Source: a virus. From it: DNA of 64,000 bases. Location: IMG/VR virus record IMGVR_UViG_3300034284_000578, positions 1 to 64,000 of that record, one strand, 5' to 3'. This document shows positions 8,329 to 21,356 of this stretch, one piece after another. The notes beneath the pieces are model-generated. The model was not told where the DNA came from, did not search any database, and saw nothing but the letters and a program-made list of their open reading frames with translations. The first letter of the stretch is position 1; the number at the start of each line of letters is the position of its first letter. The position numbers and the translations under genes were made by a program.

Positions 8329-8401
8329 GCCTCTATAGCTCAGTTGGCAGAGCATTCGGCTTTTAACCGATAGGTCGCAGGTTCGACCCCTGCTGGAGGC
8401 A
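8329..8401 (+). tRNA. tRNA-Lys(TTT)
   Basis: Full cloverleaf, anticodon loop CTTTTAA. Confidence 0.95.
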
Positions 8402-8474
8402 CTTCCAAAAGCAAATAAACTTAACGGCAGAGTTTATTTGTGTTTAAGTGAATGCCGGTTTGAAAGGTTTCGTT

Positions 8475-8729
8475 ATGACAACTATTACTAAGAAGGATCG
8501 TGTACTTAACTATCTCCACAGCGGTCGTGGTCTTACTTCCGCACAGGCTCGCAGGCTCTTCGGTGTGAAGAACTTCCGCGCCACCATCAGTAACATCAAG
8601 GAGACTGTTGAGCGTTACGGCAACTGGCGTATTGTTTCGCACACGAACCGCGACGGCGACACTCGCTACTTCATGAAGCGCGTGGCTCTCGTTGGTCCTT
8701 CTAACTACACCGTTGGCGGCTGCCGCTAA
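8475..8729 (+). CDS. Winged-helix DNA-binding protein
   Basis: KDRVLNYLHSGRGLTSAQARRLFGVKNFRATIS wHTH pattern; GAAAGG SD. Confidence 0.75.
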   Translation: MTTITKKDRVLNYLHSGRGLTSAQARRLFGVKNFRATISNIKETVERYGNWRIVSHTNRDGDTRYFMKRVALVGPSNYTVGGCR

Positions 8730-8754
8730 TCGGTAAATCCTCGGGTTGAGGGTT

Positions 8755-8790
8755 GAAGGAGCGGAGCATAAATAACTCCGCTCTTTCTTT
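8755..8790 (+). terminator. Terminator hairpin with CATAAATA in its loop
   Basis: GAAGGAGCGGAG-CATAAATAA-CTCCGCTCTTTC-TTT. Confidence 0.65.
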
Positions 8791-8792
8791 AA

Positions 8793-8863
8793 TGCCCTGT
8801 GATGTAACGGTAACATGGGAGGCTTTGAACCTCCTCTTCTTGGTTCGAATCCAAGCGGGGCAG
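8793..8863 (+). tRNA. tRNA-Gln(TTG)
   Basis: Cloverleaf, loop CTTTGAA. Confidence 0.93.
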
Positions 8864-8865
8864 TT

Positions 8866-8937
8866 GCCACTTTAGCTCAATGGTAGAGCAGTGCTTTTGT
8901 AAAGCACAGGTTGCGGGTTCGAGTCCAGTAAGTGGCT
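8866..8937 (+). tRNA. tRNA-Thr(TGT)
   Basis: Cloverleaf, loop TTTGTAA. Confidence 0.92.
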
Positions 8938-8957
8938 TTTCTGAATAAGGAGATGTT

Positions 8958-9143
8958 ATGGAAGGTAAACACGGCGCTGGTAAAGGTGATGCTTATCGCC
9001 GAGTAGACTGGGATAAGTATTCAGAAAACTATGACAGAATCTTTGGAAAGAAAGGAAATGACAATGATTCAACTAGTAGGATTGACGACGGGCGAACAAC
9101 TAATCGCAAAGGTAGAGCAACAGGAAAACGGTCTTCTTCTTAA
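8958..9143 (+). CDS. Small phage protein (GKGD..R..D...Y..NYDRIF)
   Basis: AAGGAG SD; motif recalled from T4-like phages. Confidence 0.65.
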   Translation: MEGKHGAGKGDAYRRVDWDKYSENYDRIFGKKGNDNDSTSRIDDGRTTNRKGRATGKRSSS

Positions 9144-9372
9144 GAAGGCTGCCATTCTTGTTCCGGCAGGTAAGGGAGAACTCGGAATGGCTCCGTGGAT
9201 TCCTTATGGTGAGATTGAGAATGGTATTTTGGTCCGCTGGAACGCAATTGCTTGGCATGTTGATGCTAAGATGGATCTTGCAAATCACTACAACAGTGCA
9301 TTTGGCAATGGCTTGGTTGTTCCGGTGCAGCAAGAAGTTGTTGCTCCTGAACTAAAATTAGTTGAAGGTTGA
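9058..9372 (+). CDS. Sm-like fold phage protein
   Basis: IQLVGLTTGEQLIAKV...MAPWIPY...YNSAFG pattern. Confidence 0.6.
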   Translation: MTMIQLVGLTTGEQLIAKVEQQENGLLLKKAAILVPAGKGELGMAPWIPYGEIENGILVRWNAIAWHVDAKMDLANHYNSAFGNGLVVPVQQEVVAPELKLVEG

Positions 9373-9420
9373 TTCAACTTCTGATATAATGCGGGTATGA
9401 AAGTGCCCGCATTATTCTTT

Positions 9421-9494
9421 GTTCCCGTAGCTCAGTTGGATAGAGCATTCGCCTTCTAAGCGAATGGTCAGTGGTTCGAATCCACTCGGGAACG
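9421..9494 (+). tRNA. tRNA-Arg(TCT)
   Basis: Cloverleaf, loop CTTCTAA. Confidence 0.95.
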
Positions 9495-9513
9495 CTTTGA
9501 AAGGGTTTATATT

Positions 9514-9969
9514 ATGATTACAACAACATCTACAATTTACGGCGAAGGTCAGCGTTTCACTTCTTCAAACTATCAGGGTTCAACTTACATGGGTGTTTCG
9601 TACACACTACCACTTAAGTTTGATGGCTCTTTGAGCATGACTACTGAAACTAAAGAAGCAATTGAAATGCCAACGGTTAGTAATTATACCAATACGGCTA
9701 CTCCGTTCTTTATGGGTTCATTTGATGGTTTTTGGATTCATAAGTTGTATCGTGAGGGTAATTTGGTGTATACTGTACAGGGTGTAGATCAGGATATGTT
9801 TTTACCAATTGCACACGATTATGTTGAAAGTGTCGCAATGATTACTGCCGGAAATGAAAGTATTCCGTGTCCCGATTGCCCTGTTCGTCCGCCAGTACCA
9901 GCACCGAGCGTGTCCGTTATGCTTGGTGTTGCGGCTTTGTTTGCGATCTCGCGTAAGCGAAAGATTTAA
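9514..9969 (+). CDS. Protein with a PEP-CTERM-like (VPAP) sorting tail
   Basis: C-terminal VPAPS + hydrophobic helix + RKRK. Confidence 0.7.
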   Translation: MITTTSTIYGEGQRFTSSNYQGSTYMGVSYTLPLKFDGSLSMTTETKEAIEMPTVSNYTNTATPFFMGSFDGFWIHKLYREGNLVYTVQGVDQDMFLPIAHDYVESVAMITAGNESIPCPDCPVRPPVPAPSVSVMLGVAALFAISRKRKI

Positions 9970-10347
9970 ATGACTAATACAACTCTCGATTCTTTGCTTG
10001 ATGTTGCTTATCCTATTTGCCTGGATATTCCCAGGCAAAAGAAGCATGTCTCAATTATTGTGCATAAGCACAAGATTGTTTCTGTTGGTATGAATCGTTT
10101 CAAGACTCACCCCAAGGCGAAGGAAATTGGCTATATGTACGAAGAAATGCATTCCGAACTGGACGCATTTCAGAAGATCGAAAAGCGGCTTCTTGGAAAG
10201 AAGTTGCACCTAATCAATATTAGGTTTAATCAATTTGGCGACATGCGTATGGCTCGTCCTTGTGAACTTTGCATGCCTTGGTGTGTTAAGGTTTTTCACA
10301 GCATTCGTTTTACTACAAATGATGGTTTTGAGCAGTTGGCATACTAA
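9970..10347 (+). CDS. Zn-dependent deaminase (CDA/TadA-like fold)
   Basis: HSE...RPCELC motifs; VSVGMN strand. Confidence 0.8.
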   Translation: MTNTTLDSLLDVAYPICLDIPRQKKHVSIIVHKHKIVSVGMNRFKTHPKAKEIGYMYEEMHSELDAFQKIEKRLLGKKLHLINIRFNQFGDMRMARPCELCMPWCVKVFHSIRFTTNDGFEQLAY

Positions 10348-10381
10348 ATAGTTGTGGACATTCTAATAAGGAGATACCTTT

Positions 10382-10741
10382 ATGCGTATTCAGGAAATGT
10401 GTTACGAACTCCGCAATCTCGCCCGCAAGGAAGAAGATTTACCCAAAAAGGATCTCTATTATCAAAGCGCAAAAGCACTTGAAACTTTGTTGAATATGGT
10501 TAAAATGGGCGATCTCATCGTTGCAGAAATGGAAGTATGCAAAAAGAATCCCGACAAGTGCCGTCCATGTGATTGGCAAGCAGAAGCACCCAAAGAATGG
10601 CCAATCAGCGAAGAACCAATCAAAATGATAGATGACTTCATCAAAGAATTGGCAGTGTTCCAATACATTGATCTGAAGGCACGGCACGGAGCAGAGAACG
10701 ATTACGGTTACTGGCACGACAAGCGAGAATATAAAGAATGA
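10382..10741 (+). CDS. Hypothetical protein
   Basis: AAGGAG SD; ACTAAATA upstream. Confidence 0.65.
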   Translation: MRIQEMCYELRNLARKEEDLPKKDLYYQSAKALETLLNMVKMGDLIVAEMEVCKKNPDKCRPCDWQAEAPKEWPISEEPIKMIDDFIKELAVFQYIDLKARHGAENDYGYWHDKREYKE

Positions 10742-11013
10742 CCTACAGATTACACATCGACATTCCAATTAACGGCGACGAAGCGCAAGCACTCGAAGTT
10801 GCACGAGAGATTATTCGTTTTTGCTATGACAATGGCATTTCTGAAAAGAGAATGCGTGAACTTGGTCTAGAGCAAATCAACTACCGTCTTGGTCATGACG
10901 AAGATCGCCAGAAGAGTAACTACTTTATGAAGACTCCTTCTGGCCATGTGAACAACAAAAAGTCCAAGATTGTTTATACTACCTCCTTGACAAACGAAGA
11001 AGAATCAGTATAA
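10738..11013 (+). CDS. Hypothetical protein
   Basis: ATGA overlap with the upstream gene. Confidence 0.65.
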   Translation: MTYRLHIDIPINGDEAQALEVAREIIRFCYDNGISEKRMRELGLEQINYRLGHDEDRQKSNYFMKTPSGHVNNKKSKIVYTTSLTNEEESV

Positions 11014-11014
11014 T
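10987..11014 (+). promoter_or_regulatory. Sigma70-type promoter for tRNA-Ile
   Basis: TTGACA-N16-TATAAT. Confidence 0.75.
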
Positions 11015-11027
11015 ACATCTATAACTT

Positions 11028-11099
11028 GCGCGATGGGCGGACGGTTTTCGCAGGCCGACTTATAATCGGTTCAATCAGGTTCGATTCCTGAATCGCGTA
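11028..11099 (+). tRNA. tRNA-Ile(TAT)
   Basis: GCGCGAT/ATCGCGT acceptor, GCCGA-CTTATAA-TCGGT anticodon arm, TCAGG-TTCGATT-CCTGA T arm. Confidence 0.85.
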
Positions 11100-11102
11100 C
11101 TT

Positions 11103-11303
11103 ATGACACTGCCACAAGAAGAAGTTCAAAGTTTACAAGCAGTTCGTAGATTTCTTTACGATCTACTTGATCCGTCAAAGACTCCTCGCGTCCCTAAGGC
11201 AATTCGGCAGCGAGCGTACAGAGTTTGTAAGCACTTCCCTATGGATTATTCCATAGAACAACGCTACCCGGATGTTTTTCAAAATGACAAGCAAACAATT
11301 TGA
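11103..11303 (+). CDS. Conserved small phage protein (TPRVPKAIRQRA)
   Basis: Motif recalled from T4-like phages. Confidence 0.65.
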   Translation: MTLPQEEVQSLQAVRRFLYDLLDPSKTPRVPKAIRQRAYRVCKHFPMDYSIEQRYPDVFQNDKQTI

Positions 11304-11709
11304 TTTTGAAGATTGGAAAGCAAAGTATCCCCTGTGCTTTAAGAATGAAGGTTGTTGCATTCTTTTTGGTATAGAGTGTGGTATTGGTTGGACTGAAATT
11401 CTTCATGAACTTCTACAAAAGATAGAAAACTATCTTGATGCCAATCGTGATAAGTTTGTGGATGTTGAATTCCCATTCCGCATAGATCAGGTCAAAGAAA
11501 AGTTTGGCACTCTTCGTTTCTATGTTAGTGGTGCCGATAATCAAATTTTTGATTGGATTATTGAAGCGGAAAGAAAGAGTGGCAAGACTTGTGAAGTTTG
11601 TGGTAATCCCGGTCAAGTTTGTGTAACTCAAGGTGGTTTTTGGCTTAAAACAGTTTGCGAAGAACACCGAATGGATCGTTATGTTCCTTACACGGAGGAC
11701 GGCAAGTGA
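11284..11709 (+). CDS. Conserved phage protein (QVKEKFGTLRFY, C-terminal Zn ribbon)
   Basis: GWxxIL, QVKEKFGTLRFY, CEVCG...C..H motifs. Confidence 0.7.
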   Translation: MTSKQFDFEDWKAKYPLCFKNEGCCILFGIECGIGWTEILHELLQKIENYLDANRDKFVDVEFPFRIDQVKEKFGTLRFYVSGADNQIFDWIIEAERKSGKTCEVCGNPGQVCVTQGGFWLKTVCEEHRMDRYVPYTEDGK

Positions 11710-11930
11710 GCGACCAAGAACTCAACGACTTGCTAAAGGAGTTTGACAACCCGCATCATTGCTATCCGCAGAGTTTGGTTGATGCCATCCGCCTGTTGGT
11801 CAAGGAGCGTGACGAGGCGAGGCGCGAGGTGTGCCAGTTCCGATCCACTTCATACCCACATGACATGAAGGAAGTGTATGAAATTGCGGATTCCCGTGGC
11901 TGGGATTGCTTCAAGGAGGGTGGCAAATGA
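11706..11930 (+). CDS. Small phage protein (ERDEARREVC)
   Basis: GTG start after GGAGG; locally higher GC. Confidence 0.55.
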   Translation: MSDQELNDLLKEFDNPHHCYPQSLVDAIRLLVKERDEARREVCQFRSTSYPHDMKEVYEIADSRGWDCFKEGGK

Positions 11931-12472
11931 GCGAAACTCGTAACATCATCGATCACTATCATTACTGGAAGCACGAAGATATTGTTGCAGATCTTGACAC
12001 CAAGCGCAACAACTTTACTGTTCTTTGTAGTAATCTTGGAAATGATTTCAATATTGCTACGGTGATTCGTAATGCTAATGCATTTCTAGCCAACTCCGTT
12101 TGGATTTATGGAAATAAGCAATATGATCGTCGTGGAACTGTCGGTACACACAACTACACCCACTTCCGCCATTTTAAGGAAGATCAAGAAGCAGAACTTC
12201 TAAAGGCAATGCGTGGCATGTATGTTGTTGGAGTTGACAATGTTGGAGATGCTAAGCCAATTGATGAGTTTAGTTGGCCGTGCAGTAAGCCTGTCCTCAT
12301 GATTTTTGGACAGGAGCAGATTGGAATCCCGAAGAAACTGCTTGACTTGTGTGATGAGTTGGTGTATATTAGGCAGTATGGATCAGTGAGAAGTCTAAAT
12401 GTTGGAACAGCCAGCGGTATCGCAATGTACGATTACTGCTCTAAGGTTTGCAACGGAGTGCAAATAGGTTGA
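11927..12472 (+). CDS. SpoU/TrmH-family RNA 2'-O-methyltransferase
   Basis: N-x-A-x-x-x-R-N motif, FGQEQIGI, SLNVGTASGIAMY SPOUT knot motifs. Confidence 0.88.
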   Translation: MSETRNIIDHYHYWKHEDIVADLDTKRNNFTVLCSNLGNDFNIATVIRNANAFLANSVWIYGNKQYDRRGTVGTHNYTHFRHFKEDQEAELLKAMRGMYVVGVDNVGDAKPIDEFSWPCSKPVLMIFGQEQIGIPKKLLDLCDELVYIRQYGSVRSLNVGTASGIAMYDYCSKVCNGVQIG

Positions 12473-12529
12473 TAAATACATTCGCTGGGCCCCGGCGATA
12501 TTATGATGAAGTGATTATTGGGGCTTTCT

Positions 12530-12603
12530 GCACCTATAGATTAACCGGCTAAATCCCCGCCCTTTCAAGGCGGTGACTCGGGGTTCGAGTCCCCGTAGGT
12601 GTA
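12530..12603 (+). tRNA. tRNA-Glu(TTC)
   Basis: Cloverleaf, loop CTTTCAA. Confidence 0.93.
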
Positions 12604-12650
12604 CTAAAGTTAAGATTCTGTTCAAAATATGGTAAGGCAAACATACTTGC

Positions 12651-12917
12651 ATGGAAACAATACTACTTTCGATATCAGGTCTGTGCGCTATCATTGCCTT
12701 TCAAATTTGGTACTATAGAACTGCTTATCACAATGGTTATCAAGATGGAAACCATAGTGGCATCAGTCAAGGGCTCTTTATGGCAAAAGAGCGTGAAAAC
12801 AAGCGGTCGTCGTATAATGGCTCATTACGCGGGTTTTCCAAACCCGACATGAGAGTTCGATTCTCTCCTACCGCACTTTATGATGACAAAACTAATAAAA
12901 TCAAGATACGGAGTTAA
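12651..12917 (+). CDS. Small membrane-anchored protein whose 3' part overlaps tRNA-Gly
   Basis: N-terminal TM helix followed by AYHNGYQDG. Confidence 0.5.
   Translation: METILLSISGLCAIIAFQIWYYRTAYHNGYQDGNHSGISQGLFMAKERENKRSSYNGSLRGFSKPDMRVRFSPTALYDDKTNKIKIRS
12803..12875 (+). tRNA. tRNA-Gly(TCC)
   Basis: Cloverleaf, loop TTTCCAA; one acceptor-stem mismatch. Confidence 0.85.
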
Positions 12918-13140
12918 TCGCCTCATTACAGAAGAAGCGGACGGTTCCCTGACAATTGAAGGGGAATCTCTGTTCTATCGTTGCTCTGGCAACGAGAAGG
13001 ATCTAGAGATGTTCGACTTTGAAGGTGGACCATTTTTAATGGTCGGAGATCCTATGATGGAGTTCGAAGGCACCATCAAGTCGATTGAATTGCTAGAATC
13101 CAAAGACAACAATGTTAGAATAAAAGTGAGATGTGAATGA
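12880..13140 (+). CDS. Hypothetical protein (FDFEGGPFL)
   Basis: ORF track; motif recalled from phages. Confidence 0.6.
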   Translation: MMTKLIKSRYGVNRLITEEADGSLTIEGESLFYRCSGNEKDLEMFDFEGGPFLMVGDPMMEFEGTIKSIELLESKDNNVRIKVRCE

Positions 13141-13310
13141 GCGAACACATAGAACAACGACTAAGAAATATGGCTAATAAATGGCACGATGCAAACCGCG
13201 AGGTGTTTGAAGTTTGCCGTGATGCCGCAGAAGAGATTCGCGTACTTAGAGAAATACAGAAGGTAAAAAATGAATATGGATCACAACGACTGGTTGAAGG
13301 AGCAGACTAA
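13137..13310 (+). CDS. Small protein, 57 aa (MSEHIEQRLR...DAAEEIRVLR); not in the ORF track
   Basis: ATGA overlap with the upstream gene; AA-x-EI-x-x-LR phage motif. Confidence 0.6.
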   Translation: MSEHIEQRLRNMANKWHDANREVFEVCRDAAEEIRVLREIQKVKNEYGSQRLVEGAD

Positions 13311-13509
13311 TCGCTCTCCTGAGCGTTCTTGGGAGTTTGAAGATGTTTTGATGAATAATCAAGCATTGCGTTTGCGTAATCAAATGTTGGAAATTGAAAA
13401 CGATAAGTTACGTGAACGAGTTTTAAATTTAGAAAAAGAAATTTCTCAAATTAAGCGCGAGGCCATGCAAAAGTTTCAAAATGGTTGGGGAAAGGGTAAG
13501 GATGAGTAA
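13270..13509 (+). CDS. Coiled-coil hypothetical protein
   Basis: ORF track; heptad pattern. Confidence 0.6.
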   Translation: MNMDHNDWLKEQTNRSPERSWEFEDVLMNNQALRLRNQMLEIENDKLRERVLNLEKEISQIKREAMQKFQNGWGKGKDE

Positions 13510-13774
13510 CGAAGAAAAGATTAAGCAACTTGAAGAAGAAAATAAGAAACTTAGAGAAACTATGTTCCGCGCATGGGCTATCCTCGTAGACTATGATGGA
13601 TACTACAGCGAAACGCTAAAAAAGGGCGATGTGCATGGATTGGCTTCTATTGTAAAAGAAGCAGTGCATATTCTAAATACTCCTCGCCGCGACGCACTTG
13701 ATAGACTGGCACAATTAGATGAAGAACTTGGTCTATATGACGACTTTATAAGCGATCAAAAGGAAATGGACTAA
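13502..13774 (+). CDS. Hypothetical protein
   Basis: ORF track; start at MSNEEK. Confidence 0.6.
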   Translation: MSNEEKIKQLEEENKKLRETMFRAWAILVDYDGYYSETLKKGDVHGLASIVKEAVHILNTPRRDALDRLAQLDEELGLYDDFISDQKEMD

Positions 13775-13782
13775 ATAATCTT

Positions 13783-14133
13783 TGGTATTGTTGATATTGG
13801 ATTGAAATGCGAACAACACAGGGGTTCGATTCCCCTCGGCTCCATTAGCCTAACCGAAATAGATTCTGCAAGTCTATTAGAGATGGCGAGTAAAGTCCTC
13901 TTTGCAGGGGGCAATTCCTGAAGCCCGGGCTTCAGGTATTTAAGGGGCTGAACTGGCTTCGATTGGCGCAGAGTAATGAAGAAGGAGATACCCGACACGG
14001 GTAACAAGTGTCGTAAATAAACAGTTGCAAAAATTGATTGCCGCACCAATGGCAATGGCTGCTTGAAGCAGTGGGGTCTGATCCACCCGCGACTGAACGG
14101 ATCACGGTTGTTGGGGAGAAATCCTCAACAACC
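13783..14133 (+). ncRNA. ssrA: Circularly permuted (two-piece) tmRNA
   Basis: Acceptor piece ...GGGGTTCGATTCCCCTCGGCTCCA ends at 13844, before the coding piece GGGGCTGAACTGGCTTCGA starting at 13944; G3.U70 pair; PK1-like CCCGACACGGG...GTGTCG; tag ...GCC GCA CCA ATG GCA ATG GCT GCT TGA. Confidence 0.88.
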
Positions 14134-14135
14134 AC

Positions 14136-14164
14136 TTGCATTGAAGACAGAGGCATGATATAAT
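14136..14164 (+). promoter_or_regulatory. Sigma70-type promoter
   Basis: TTGCAT-N17-TATAAT upstream of the tRNA-Leu pair. Confidence 0.65.
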
Positions 14165-14173
14165 ACAGTTCAC

Positions 14174-14256
14174 GCCCGCATGGTGGAATGGCAGACACAG
14201 CGGATTCAAAATCCGCTGCCCTAAGAAGCGTGTAGGTTCAAGTCCTACTGCGGGTA
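14174..14256 (+). tRNA. tRNA-Leu(CAA)
   Basis: Cloverleaf with long variable arm, loop TTCAAAA. Confidence 0.93.
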
Positions 14257-14260
14257 CTAC

Positions 14261-14334
14261 GGCACGGTAGACCAATCGGCAGAGTCAATAGACTTAAAAT
14301 CTGTGTAGTGTGGGTTCGAGTCCCACCCGTGCTA
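14261..14334 (+). tRNA. tRNA-Leu(TAA), short variable loop
   Basis: Cloverleaf, loop CTTAAAA. Confidence 0.88.
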
Positions 14335-14337
14335 CTT

Positions 14338-14526
14338 ATGAATCCAAAGTATTACACAATCGAACGAATCAACAAGGCGCTACTAGAATTGTCTACGCCT
14401 CGTGCTTTAATGCACGAATATACTACTGATAGTATTGTTGATTTATTAAATGATGTTCGTGATGAGTTGATGGGATTTTATCACAAACAGGATATTCGTC
14501 GTAGATTCGACGAGGAGAGCGGTTAA
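14338..14526 (+). CDS. Hypothetical protein
   Basis: Start revised to the ATG after the tRNA. Confidence 0.55.
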   Translation: MNPKYYTIERINKALLELSTPRALMHEYTTDSIVDLLNDVRDELMGFYHKQDIRRRFDEESG

Positions 14527-14747
14527 TGGCTAAGGGAAAAATTAAAAACAAAAACAAGAAGCCAACTGCAAACGAAGAGTATTATTTTGTTGCACATGTT
14601 GATGCCAACGGAGAAGTAACATCATTACTTTTAACTGATGTTGAATATAACCGAGCAAAGATAAGAGCAGAGAACAATCCAGAAGATGTACCGGAACATT
14701 TTATTGTGTTCCATCAGGAGCATAAAGATGGCAAAGAAGAGAGTTAA
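14526..14747 (+). CDS. Hypothetical protein
   Basis: TAATG coupling; LLLTDVEYNRAKIRAENNPED. Confidence 0.6.
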   Translation: MAKGKIKNKNKKPTANEEYYFVAHVDANGEVTSLLLTDVEYNRAKIRAENNPEDVPEHFIVFHQEHKDGKEES

Positions 14748-15099
14748 AAAGTCTATTGATAAAATTACAAAATTATGGTCACCAAAAGGTGCCATCAATT
14801 GGGTTTTAGATGAAACTTTTGATAAGTTTACATTCCGTTTGAAGTACGCACCAATTGCTGTTCTTCTAGAAGAACACGGTTACTTGAGAGAAGCCCAAGG
14901 TTGTCTTATTGAACAACATAAGGGCGAAACCAAGAATTATTATGATAACCCAAAGCGCAAAGATTTGCAAATTCGTATTGAATTTGTAGAAGAAAAGATT
15001 ATGGCAAAGTATTATGGGCTTCAAGATGCCATTGAGCGCATGGACTATTATGACTCATTAGAAGCCAGAACGAAACAAGAAAAGACAGAAGAAAAATGA
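14728..15099 (+). CDS. Hypothetical protein
   Basis: Start at MAKKRV after AGGAG. Confidence 0.6.
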   Translation: MAKKRVKKSIDKITKLWSPKGAINWVLDETFDKFTFRLKYAPIAVLLEEHGYLREAQGCLIEQHKGETKNYYDNPKRKDLQIRIEFVEEKIMAKYYGLQDAIERMDYYDSLEARTKQEKTEEK

Positions 15100-15476
15100 A
15101 TACTTTGTTTGTAGATGATAGTACTGAGCGTTGGAGTGAATATTCCAAGCAAGCAACAGAAATGAATTGGTGTGCGGCTTGGGCTATCAACTATAATGCT
15201 GCAACTAATGGTTTTGGTTATCGCCAATACGATATTGTGTTTTTAGATCACGATCTTGGTGAAGAGGATAAGACCGGTTATGATGTTGCAAAATACATGG
15301 TAGAGCATAATATTAAGTGTGGTATGGTCGTTGTTCATACCATGAATCCTGTTGGTGGAAACAACATACATACTTTGCTTCAGAATTTTGGTTACAAAAT
15401 TCTTAAAGTTGCCGGTTGTTGGAATGATCCGGTACTGATGAGAAGTTTGGACGGAATTTTGAGAAACATTCCCTGA
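15096..15476 (+). CDS. Cyclic-phosphate-processing receiver (REC-like) domain protein
   Basis: LFVDD, FLDHDLG, TGYDV, VHTMNPVG motifs. Confidence 0.75.
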   Translation: MNTLFVDDSTERWSEYSKQATEMNWCAAWAINYNAATNGFGYRQYDIVFLDHDLGEEDKTGYDVAKYMVEHNIKCGMVVVHTMNPVGGNNIHTLLQNFGYKILKVAGCWNDPVLMRSLDGILRNIP

Positions 15477-15542
15477 TAGCTCAGTTGGTAGAGCGGCGAG
15501 CTGTTAACTCGCATGTCACTGGTTCGAGTCCAGTTCGGGGAG
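15470..15542 (+). tRNA. tRNA-Asn(GTT)
   Basis: Cloverleaf, loop CTGTTAA. Confidence 0.95.
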
Positions 15543-15559
15543 TTTTCTTTTATATTTAA

Positions 15560-15632
15560 GCCCGAGTAACTCAGCGGCTAGAGTGCTTCCTTTACACGGA
15601 AGAAGTCGTCGGTTCGATCCCGACCTTGGGTA
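15560..15632 (+). tRNA. tRNA-Val(TAC)
   Basis: Cloverleaf, loop TTTACAC. Confidence 0.95.
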
Positions 15633-15636
15633 TTTT

Positions 15637-15718
15637 GCGAGTGTACTCAAGCGGCAACGAGGACAGACTGTAAATCTGTTGTCATTCGACTTCGGGGGTT
15701 CGAGTCCCTCCGCTCGCA
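15637..15718 (+). tRNA. tRNA-Tyr(GTA)
   Basis: Cloverleaf with variable arm, loop CTGTAAA. Confidence 0.93.
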
Positions 15719-15722
15719 TTCT

Positions 15723-15811
15723 GCGTAGTTCAGTTAACGCTGACTAGAATCGCCTACTTGCAAGGGGTGATTTGATACAGAGCAACAGAGGTGCAAGTCC
15801 TCCACTACGCT
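15723..15811 (+). ncRNA. Non-canonical tRNA-like RNA with a TGC anticodon loop
   Basis: Perfect GCGTAGT/ACTACGC acceptor; 8-bp anticodon-like stem around CTTGCAA; T arm GAGG-TGCAAGT-CCTC. Confidence 0.65.
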
Positions 15812-15814
15812 TTT

Positions 15815-15904
15815 GGATAGATGGCCGAGTGGTTTAAGGCTGCGGTTTACTAAACCGCCGTAGGTACTAGATACTTACCGGGGGTTCGAATCCCTCTCTA
15901 TCCG
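15815..15904 (+). tRNA. tRNA-Ser(ACT)
   Basis: Ser-type long variable arm, G73, GCGGT-TTACTAA-ACCGC anticodon arm. Confidence 0.88.
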
Positions 15905-15906
15905 TT

Positions 15907-15980
15907 CGGAGAGTAGCACAGTTTGGTAGTGCGCCTGGTTTGGGACCAGGAGGTCGCAGGTTCAAATCCTGTTTCTCCGA
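15907..15980 (+). tRNA. tRNA-Pro(TGG)
   Basis: Cloverleaf, loop TTTGGGA. Confidence 0.95.
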
Positions 15981-16000
15981 CTATTATAAATACTGGCACT

Positions 16001-20658: not shown

Positions 20659-21356
20659 CAAATTTACATAATACATTTTCAGAAAATGAAGTTGTTTGGT
20701 TAACATTACCAAGCGCAAATATAAAAATGGCTAAAAAAACTTTCCCAATGTGGAAAGCAAAAGGTTATAAAATTGCTGCTATAGTTCCAGACAATTTGTT
20801 TAGCGAATATACGAATATCACTGATATTGCGGTGAAGGAAAGTACTATTGGTGGATATTCTGGTTGGCCTAAAGCAGTAAATCATTTATCGAAATTATTA
20901 TCTAATATTGAAATAATTATTGCGGCTGGCGACGATATGCATCCAGATCCCAACTATGAAGCATACCAACTTCGTTTACAATTTGTTCGCCATTTTGGTG
21001 GTACTTTTGGTGTAATGCAACCATACGGTGATAAGTTTGGAAGCATGGCTTGTGAAACCTGTGAGCAAATATGTGGAAGTGCTTGGTTGGGAAAAGAGTT
21101 TAGGGAAAAGATCAATCAAGGTAAAGGCCCAATGTGGGAAGAATACTGGCACATGTGGGCGGATACGGAACTTTATCAAGTTGCGACTAAATACAATTGC
21201 TTATGGATAAGAGGCGATCTAAGTCAATTCCATGAACACCGTTTACGCGGCACACATGGGTTTAGACCTACTATTCCGTCTGGAAATATGAAGGTTGCTC
21301 AAAAGATATACGAAACACGAAAAAAGAATAATTTTCCGGGAACAGAATTATTATGA
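20655..21356 (+). CDS. GT2-like glycosyltransferase
   Basis: AVNHL, AAGDDM, WADTEL. Confidence 0.7.
   Translation: MTNLHNTFSENEVVWLTLPSANIKMAKKTFPMWKAKGYKIAAIVPDNLFSEYTNITDIAVKESTIGGYSGWPKAVNHLSKLLSNIEIIIAAGDDMHPDPNYEAYQLRLQFVRHFGGTFGVMQPYGDKFGSMACETCEQICGSAWLGKEFREKINQGKGPMWEEYWHMWADTELYQVATKYNCLWIRGDLSQFHEHRLRGTHGFRPTIPSGNMKVAQKIYETRKKNNFPGTELL

Follow-up and report, generated by a model that had tools for sequence, protein, structure and literature searches.

The window, a 64,000-nt stretch that forms part of a 108,576-base IMG/VR virus record (approximately 60% complete), contains on its plus strand a two-piece tmRNA gene in which the acceptor piece precedes the coding piece. The acceptor piece (61 nt, 13784–13844), delimited by the RF04321 alignment and by covariation, comprises the 3′ strands of helix 2 and, as read from the sequence, the T-arm (13820–13836), the 3′ strand of the acceptor stem, CGGCUCC (13837–13843), and the discriminator A13844, which is followed by UUA and not by CCA. 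A 99-nt spacer (13845–13943), an intervening segment expected to be excised, separates it from the coding piece (13944–14133), which holds the 5′ strand of the acceptor stem, a D-loop analogue, the 5′ strands of helix 2, PK1, the tag, the stop-codon hairpin, a 3′ pseudoknot, and a terminal hairpin. The RF04321 alignment covers the coding piece to 14066, and the beta_tmRNA alignment covers it to 14134. Also on the plus strand, 6 nt upstream of the gene, the sequence displays a T4-late-promoter-like motif, ACTAAATA (13770–13777).

The model of the RNA reveals a network of helices joining the two halves. The 5′ acceptor strand GGGGCUG (13944–13950) pairs with 13837–13843 and provides the G3:U70 pair. 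Next to the D-loop analogue (13951–13962), helix 2 is formed by 13808–13811 with 13967–13970 and by 13814–13816 with 13963–13965, and the closing helix joins 13784–13789 to 13987–13992. PK1 (13993–14028) consists of a hairpin (13993–13998 with 14008–14013) whose loop segment GUAAC (14001–14005) pairs with GUUGC (14024–14028). The tag frame runs from GCC to GCU (14040–14063) and reads AAPMAMAA over 8 codons before the UGA stop (14064–14066), which forms the loop of a covarying hairpin that also takes in the last tag codons (14058–14072). In the 3′ pseudoknot (14073–14104), GGGG (14073–14076) pairs with ACCC (14085–14088) and UGAUCC (14079–14084) with GGAUCA (14099–14104). A terminal hairpin of 11 bp (14106–14133) was found in both the sequence and the single-sequence fold. 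No T-run follows it in the window, and equivalent hairpins with T-runs are present at three other loci (L018, L042, and L114). Inspection of positions 13500–14400 placed every tmRNA element named in the initial annotation where that annotation had located it.

Searches with covariance models agreed with this layout. The Rfam 15 model of permuted tmRNA (tmRNA_permuted, RF04321) matched 13784–14066 at 70.9 bits (gathering score 47; E = 1e-11), its alignment spanned the full model length (positions 1–213), and this was its only match within the 108,576-base record. The standard one-piece model RF00023, in which the halves are colinear, scored 24.6 bits against a cut-off of 47 and aligned with the T-arm region only. 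ARAGORN, another check proposed for the locus, called 14 tRNAs in the window and missed the tmRNA. Together with the covariation described below, the RF04321 match bears out the reading of the gene as a permuted ssrA that has PK1, a tag with its resume context, and all alanine identity elements intact; as far as sequence can establish it, the phage is confirmed to carry a genuine circularly permuted, two-piece tmRNA gene.

Relatives were gathered by two exact-word scans of IMG/VR, and 28 distinct sequences were aligned. In IMG/VR, 76 contigs contain a 17-mer specific to the family, and the tag frame is present in 66 of these. RF04321 scored 63 to 98 bits across the relatives overall and 63 to 82 bits at all 14 of the 14 loci where the whole gene was visible to Rfam. 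The same gene order recurs in dozens of independent contigs, which rules out the assembly error at the junction that had been named as a possible source of the permutation. The single-sequence fold (z = −3.4) yielded the tRNA-like domain and the PK1, stop-codon, and terminal hairpins, and RNAalifold on the 28 sequences recovered the closing helix, helix 2, T-arm, acceptor stem, PK1 hairpin, and stop-codon hairpin. We also counted pairing on a hand-written structure of 44 pairs that included the PK1 loop-downstream helix. Across the 1232 cells (44 pairs in 28 distinct relatives), 99.4% were paired, and two-sided compensatory changes were present in 15 of the 44 pairs, a number reached by none of 500 shuffles and compared with 2 to 4 in slid controls. 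Taken with the RF04321 score and the fold, this goes well beyond what chance would give.

The individual elements differ in how their conservation is expressed. Helix 2 contains pairs with compensatory changes, as does the PK1 hairpin (3 pairs), while every cell of the PK1 loop-downstream helix is paired (100%) and its changes are all one-sided. In the 28 rows the acceptor helix, likewise paired at 100%, is nearly invariant; G3:U70 is found in every row (28/28), and the discriminator A likewise never changed. Among the wider relatives that we inspected, the acceptor stem is altered in five complementary ways, with G1-C72, G2-C71, G3.U70, and A73 always kept. The second stem of the 3′ pseudoknot exists in six distinct complementary versions among relatives, and in most of them it takes the form of a terminator followed by a T-run. 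Four family members with the acceptor GGGGUCG/CGACUCC (L149, L150, L159, and L178) have a D-loop analogue without the usual UUCGA, which is replaced by AAAGGAAU[AC]GA.

The tag frame comprises exactly 8 codons in all 28 relatives. Its variants are AN[EQRY][LM]A[MI]AA and AAPM[AR]MAA, with AEELAIAA in one row (L050). The tag ends in A[MI]AA and a stop codon, and indels and in-frame stops occur only upstream of the resume codon. The last strand of PK1 ends 11 nt upstream of the resume codon GCC at 14040; a PK1-to-resume spacing of 11 nt and a stop codon in a hairpin loop are typical of Escherichia coli tmRNA. The window copy has G, not A, at position −4 of the resume codon. The Rfam consensus alignment would place the resume codon at GCA 14027, which we rejected on frame and variation evidence. 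Its distance upstream of GCC is 13 nt, and hence out of frame, in 13 of the 28 rows (the window among them), and 12 nt in the remaining 15; the 5 rows of the short-spacer/L109 group have GUA there and, immediately downstream, an in-frame TAA; and the near-identical loci L022 and L023 have the same tag and differ by the 1-nt indel. Because of this frame offset, the GUA and TAA codons, and the indel, the stretch between PK1 and GCC is non-coding and the tag has 8 codons. The description of the tag as very short holds to the extent that 8 codons fall below the commonest length of 10, but tmRNA tags of 2 residues are on record (PMC11915505).

The gene resides in a T4-like phage, as had been proposed: homologues of gp6 and gp32 are present, gp32 and the baseplate genes mark the phage as T4-like, and the genome is of the lytic type. 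At the loci scanned with Rfam, the tmRNA gene lies among tRNA genes. In the window, the tRNA and tmRNA genes are interspersed with genes for a SpoU-family RNA methylase (11906–12472) and a protein with a cREC_REC (cyclic-phosphate processing receiver) domain (15096–15476). The tmRNA gene accompanies the phage's block of tRNA and RNA-modification genes. CCA is never encoded in this tmRNA family, and the 14 tRNA genes of the window (8329–15981) are likewise without it, each having T after the discriminator. In the 108-kb record, whose completeness is about 60%, neither a CCA-adding enzyme gene nor an SmpB gene (PF01668) was found. The 14 CCA-less tRNAs thus suggest that the phage depends on a CCA-adding enzyme not found in that record, and with neither gene found there, the RNA would have to suit the factors of its host, whose own copy of SmpB is presumed to be used.

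The host and the timing of expression were approached from the surrounding sequence. An S8 peptidase with a dockerin-type tail (488–1891) has three nearest Atlas clusters that are mostly from Planctomycetota, and a second gene (9514–9969) offers only weak PEP-CTERM- or VPDSG-CTERM-like leads to a host. The planctomycete host suggested in the initial annotation is a tentative lead that comes from one host-like S8 peptidase. Planctomycetota genomes contain 1914 standard tmRNAs versus 1 permuted; if the host assignment is right, the gene would not have been copied in this form from the host. The expression of the gene late in infection is similarly tentative and was suggested by the TAAATA-type motif only. 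Motifs of this type show no enrichment across the window (61 observed versus 78 expected); about half of the relatives have a similar motif equally far from the gene, and it is absent where the tmRNA directly follows a tRNA. A consensus scan of the plus strand found no sigma-70 promoter upstream of the gene. By eye, an extended −10 promoter-like TGaTATAAT was seen at 14156–14164, a site not listed by the consensus scan, which lies after the tmRNA's last hairpin and approximately 10 nt before a tRNA-Leu gene (14174).

The spacer has a conserved fold of its own. A hairpin, H1, is formed on the plus strand by 13858–13864 with 13872–13878 and covaries in five complementary versions, and an optional hairpin (13917–13925 with 13928–13936) covaries at four pairs; the alignment behind these counts was fitted to nested helices, and the unbiased count is that of the loop pairing only. 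In this loop pairing, the H1 loop CUGCAA (13866–13871) can pair with 13902–13907 to give a possible pseudoknot. Its CUGC/GCAG core is invariant, with one double change, and an A.A mismatch is present in half of the rows. The spacer is conserved in the "TTAGCC" subtype, to which the window belongs, whereas the outer flanks of the gene are not. Among the subtypes, the spacer measures 6, 12, 70 to 99, 122, or 165 to 167 nt, and since other subtypes manage with 6 nt, a folded spacer is not required for the tmRNA itself. No Rfam family matched the spacer at E ≤ 10. Two further identities were considered and rejected. A by-eye mapping onto an HDV-like ribozyme gave no convincing first helix. The sole reading frame, of 39 codons from a TTG (13802–13921), begins within the acceptor piece, and a 26-nt deletion in relatives opposes a coding function.

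The premise that permuted tmRNA is new to phages does not hold, and the claim of novelty fails with it, because two-piece tmRNAs of phages have already been published. Among 18,146 phage genomes (isolates), 53 two-piece tmRNAs were reported, 50 of them from aquatic samples, and the OM43 phage Melnitz is one of the carriers (PMC9004378); RF04321 itself was built, and 79 phage tmRNAs were listed, in PMC11915505. When we tested the five nearest cultured T4-like phages, RF04321 found a permuted tmRNA in four, namely Melnitz, Mosig, HTVC008M, and BUCT-ZZ01. The gp6 protein of the window is 33 to 35% identical to gp6 of Melnitz, pelagimyophages, and cyanophages. The window's RNA belongs to a subfamily that is widespread and little annotated among uncultured T4-like phages, and its kind is already known.

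Comparing the window with these phages, the Methylophilales phage Melnitz and the Pelagibacter phages Mosig and HTVC008M resemble it in their T4-like genomes, permuted gene order, RF04321 match, and location in a translation-gene region. However, their RNAs are alpha-type above the cut-off (67.6–106.7 bits), encode CCA, and specify tags of 9 to 14 residues, whereas the window scores only 14.9 bits with the alpha model, has no CCA, and specifies 8 residues. Melnitz also has a glutamine riboswitch adjoining its tmRNA, whereas Rfam gave no glutamine riboswitch match in the window. Synechococcus phage BUCT-ZZ01, a lake T4-like phage with a gp6 34% identical to that of the window, has an RNA that scores 94.5 bits with the beta model (cut-off 84), encodes CCA, and specifies a 12-residue tag, compared with 53 bits, no CCA, and 8 residues in the window. 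The BUCT-ZZ01 gene (L142, ON615601.1, 116952–117248) thus passes the Betaproteobacteria model rather than the cyanobacterial one, although it belongs to a phage of a freshwater cyanobacterium. The marine phages S-CAM1 and S-SSM7, which are cyano-type, share with the window the unencoded CCA and a nearly identical T-arm, and their 5-nt spacers resemble the 6-nt subtype of the window's family; in contrast, their tags have about 20 or more residues, and their helix 2, PK1, and 3′ ends are unlike those of the window. In S-SSM7 (L147, GU071098.1, approximately 21009–21227) the tmRNA is overlaid by an annotated "hypothetical protein" coding sequence, and in S-CAM1 (L146) the permuted tmRNA is without annotation. 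The general RF04321 family has the same break point and closing helix as the window, but the model consensus includes the CCA that is absent here. Three large IMG/VR contigs (L016, L024, and L108) have one-piece tmRNAs with the same 24-nt T-arm and acceptor and unrelated bodies; that of L108 is GC-rich, has an unencoded CCA, and specifies a tag that likewise ends in AMAA.

We consider it very probable that the phage has here a functional ssrA of its own, with the gene in circularly permuted form. Its processing, charging, tagging, timing, and benefit are what we infer from the sequence and from the relatives. A single transcript would extend from about 13784 to about 14133, in which 13837–13843 would pair with 13944–13950 to form the acceptor stem while the helix 2 strands hold the halves together. 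RNase P would cut before G13944, and a tRNA 3′-end nuclease would cut after A13844, freeing the 99-nt spacer. The host CCA-adding enzyme would then supply CCA, as it would for the 14 CCA-less tRNAs of the phage, and the two-piece RNA (approximately 64 + 190 nt) would be charged with alanine by virtue of G3:U70 and A73. Together with host SmpB, it would enter stalled ribosomes, translation would switch to the GCC at 14040, and A-AAPMAMAA would be added before termination at UGA. In this way, ribosomes would be freed and the truncated protein would be marked for host proteases. The benefit is most likely that stalled ribosomes continue to be rescued as host RNA is shut down or degraded by the phage. 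Several observations weigh against this reading: ARAGORN did not call the gene, every clade-specific model stayed below its cut-off, neither an SmpB gene nor a CCA-adding enzyme gene was found in the incomplete record, and the window copy has the G at −4 and no T-run behind its final hairpin.

The origin of the permutation allows two readings. When the permutation point was compared with the known two-piece classes, the general permuted model could be aligned to the RNA over its whole length, so the break lies at the same place as in the known lineages; no clade model reached its cut-off. The window scored 53 bits with beta_tmRNA (RF01850; cut-off 84), and only partial matches were obtained with alpha_tmRNA (RF01849; 14.9 bits against 50) and cyano_tmRNA (RF01851; 33.9 bits against 70); three other members scored 44.8 to 66.2 bits with the beta model, and no clade model reached its cut-off in four other family members. 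Such scores are one argument for a fourth independent permutation, which would have emerged within phages or within a host lineage not yet sampled, separately from the alpha, beta, and cyano two-piece lineages. In addition, blastn against GenBank phages gave no match at 1e-5, and under looser limits only 27 to 33 nt of the T-arm and acceptor were matched. An exact 19-mer of the 5′ half had six matches in 185,579 species genomes, of which the only one in a tmRNA lies in a standard actinomycete gene. The other five we regard as chance, as they fall in two protein-coding gene families and about four are expected from the size of the database. Were the host a planctomycete, it would be expected to have a standard tmRNA itself, which also speaks for a separate origin. 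However, the end-to-end alignment with the general permuted model, the break point, and the closing helix are as in known lineages, and the beta model, the best clade model for the window and for most members tested, aligns over the full length including both 3′ hairpins. Moreover, the above-cut-off gene of BUCT-ZZ01 implies that beta-like genes circulate in related phages, and a tree of so short and constrained an RNA could not settle the matter. On balance, we regard an independent permutation as unlikely, at roughly one chance in four. The wider proposal, that the phages hold a restricted fourth two-piece lineage not derived from the alpha, beta, or cyano types and that the excised spacer is in addition a functional pseudoknotted RNA guiding end formation or acting as a small RNA during infection, is somewhat more doubtful still.

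Two other explanations would deny the locus a role in trans-translation on behalf of the phage. The tRNA-like domain could serve as a decoy that soaks up SmpB or alanyl-tRNA synthetase and so blocks host trans-translation, as has been proposed for mycobacteriophage DS6A, whose gene consists of the tRNA-like domain only (PMC4131195, PMC11915505), and the failure to find an SmpB gene in the roughly 60% complete record fits this idea. However, a decoy needs no tag, whereas here compensatory changes accompany the conservation of the 8-codon frame, the resume context, PK1, and the stop-codon hairpin, which makes such a function very improbable. The locus could also be a tRNA-like match that arose by chance, the remnant of a prophage attachment site, or a chimera of the assembly: at the ends of many viral contigs, the same 24-nt T-arm and acceptor recur with CCA after them and look like attachment-site copies of host tmRNA. 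Against this, the locus has both halves together with PK1 and the tag, all with covariation, the same order is found in dozens of contigs from many samples, and the genome is that of a lytic-type T4-like phage; we give this explanation almost no weight.

The working permuted ssrA copy that we favor leaves the knowledge of tmRNA itself unchanged, and its significance lies with the phages. It would mean that T4-like phages of a common, uncultured group bring along a ribosome-rescue RNA of their own. How much phages invest in the quality control of translation has probably been underestimated, because ARAGORN missed the gene in the window and the genes of S-CAM1 and S-SSM7 are unannotated or overlaid by a coding sequence. 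With its fixed 8-residue tag, CCA-less ends matching the phage tRNAs, and a spacer ranging from 6 nt to a conserved folded RNA, the family offers a compact test case for how phage tmRNAs mature and are used with host factors.
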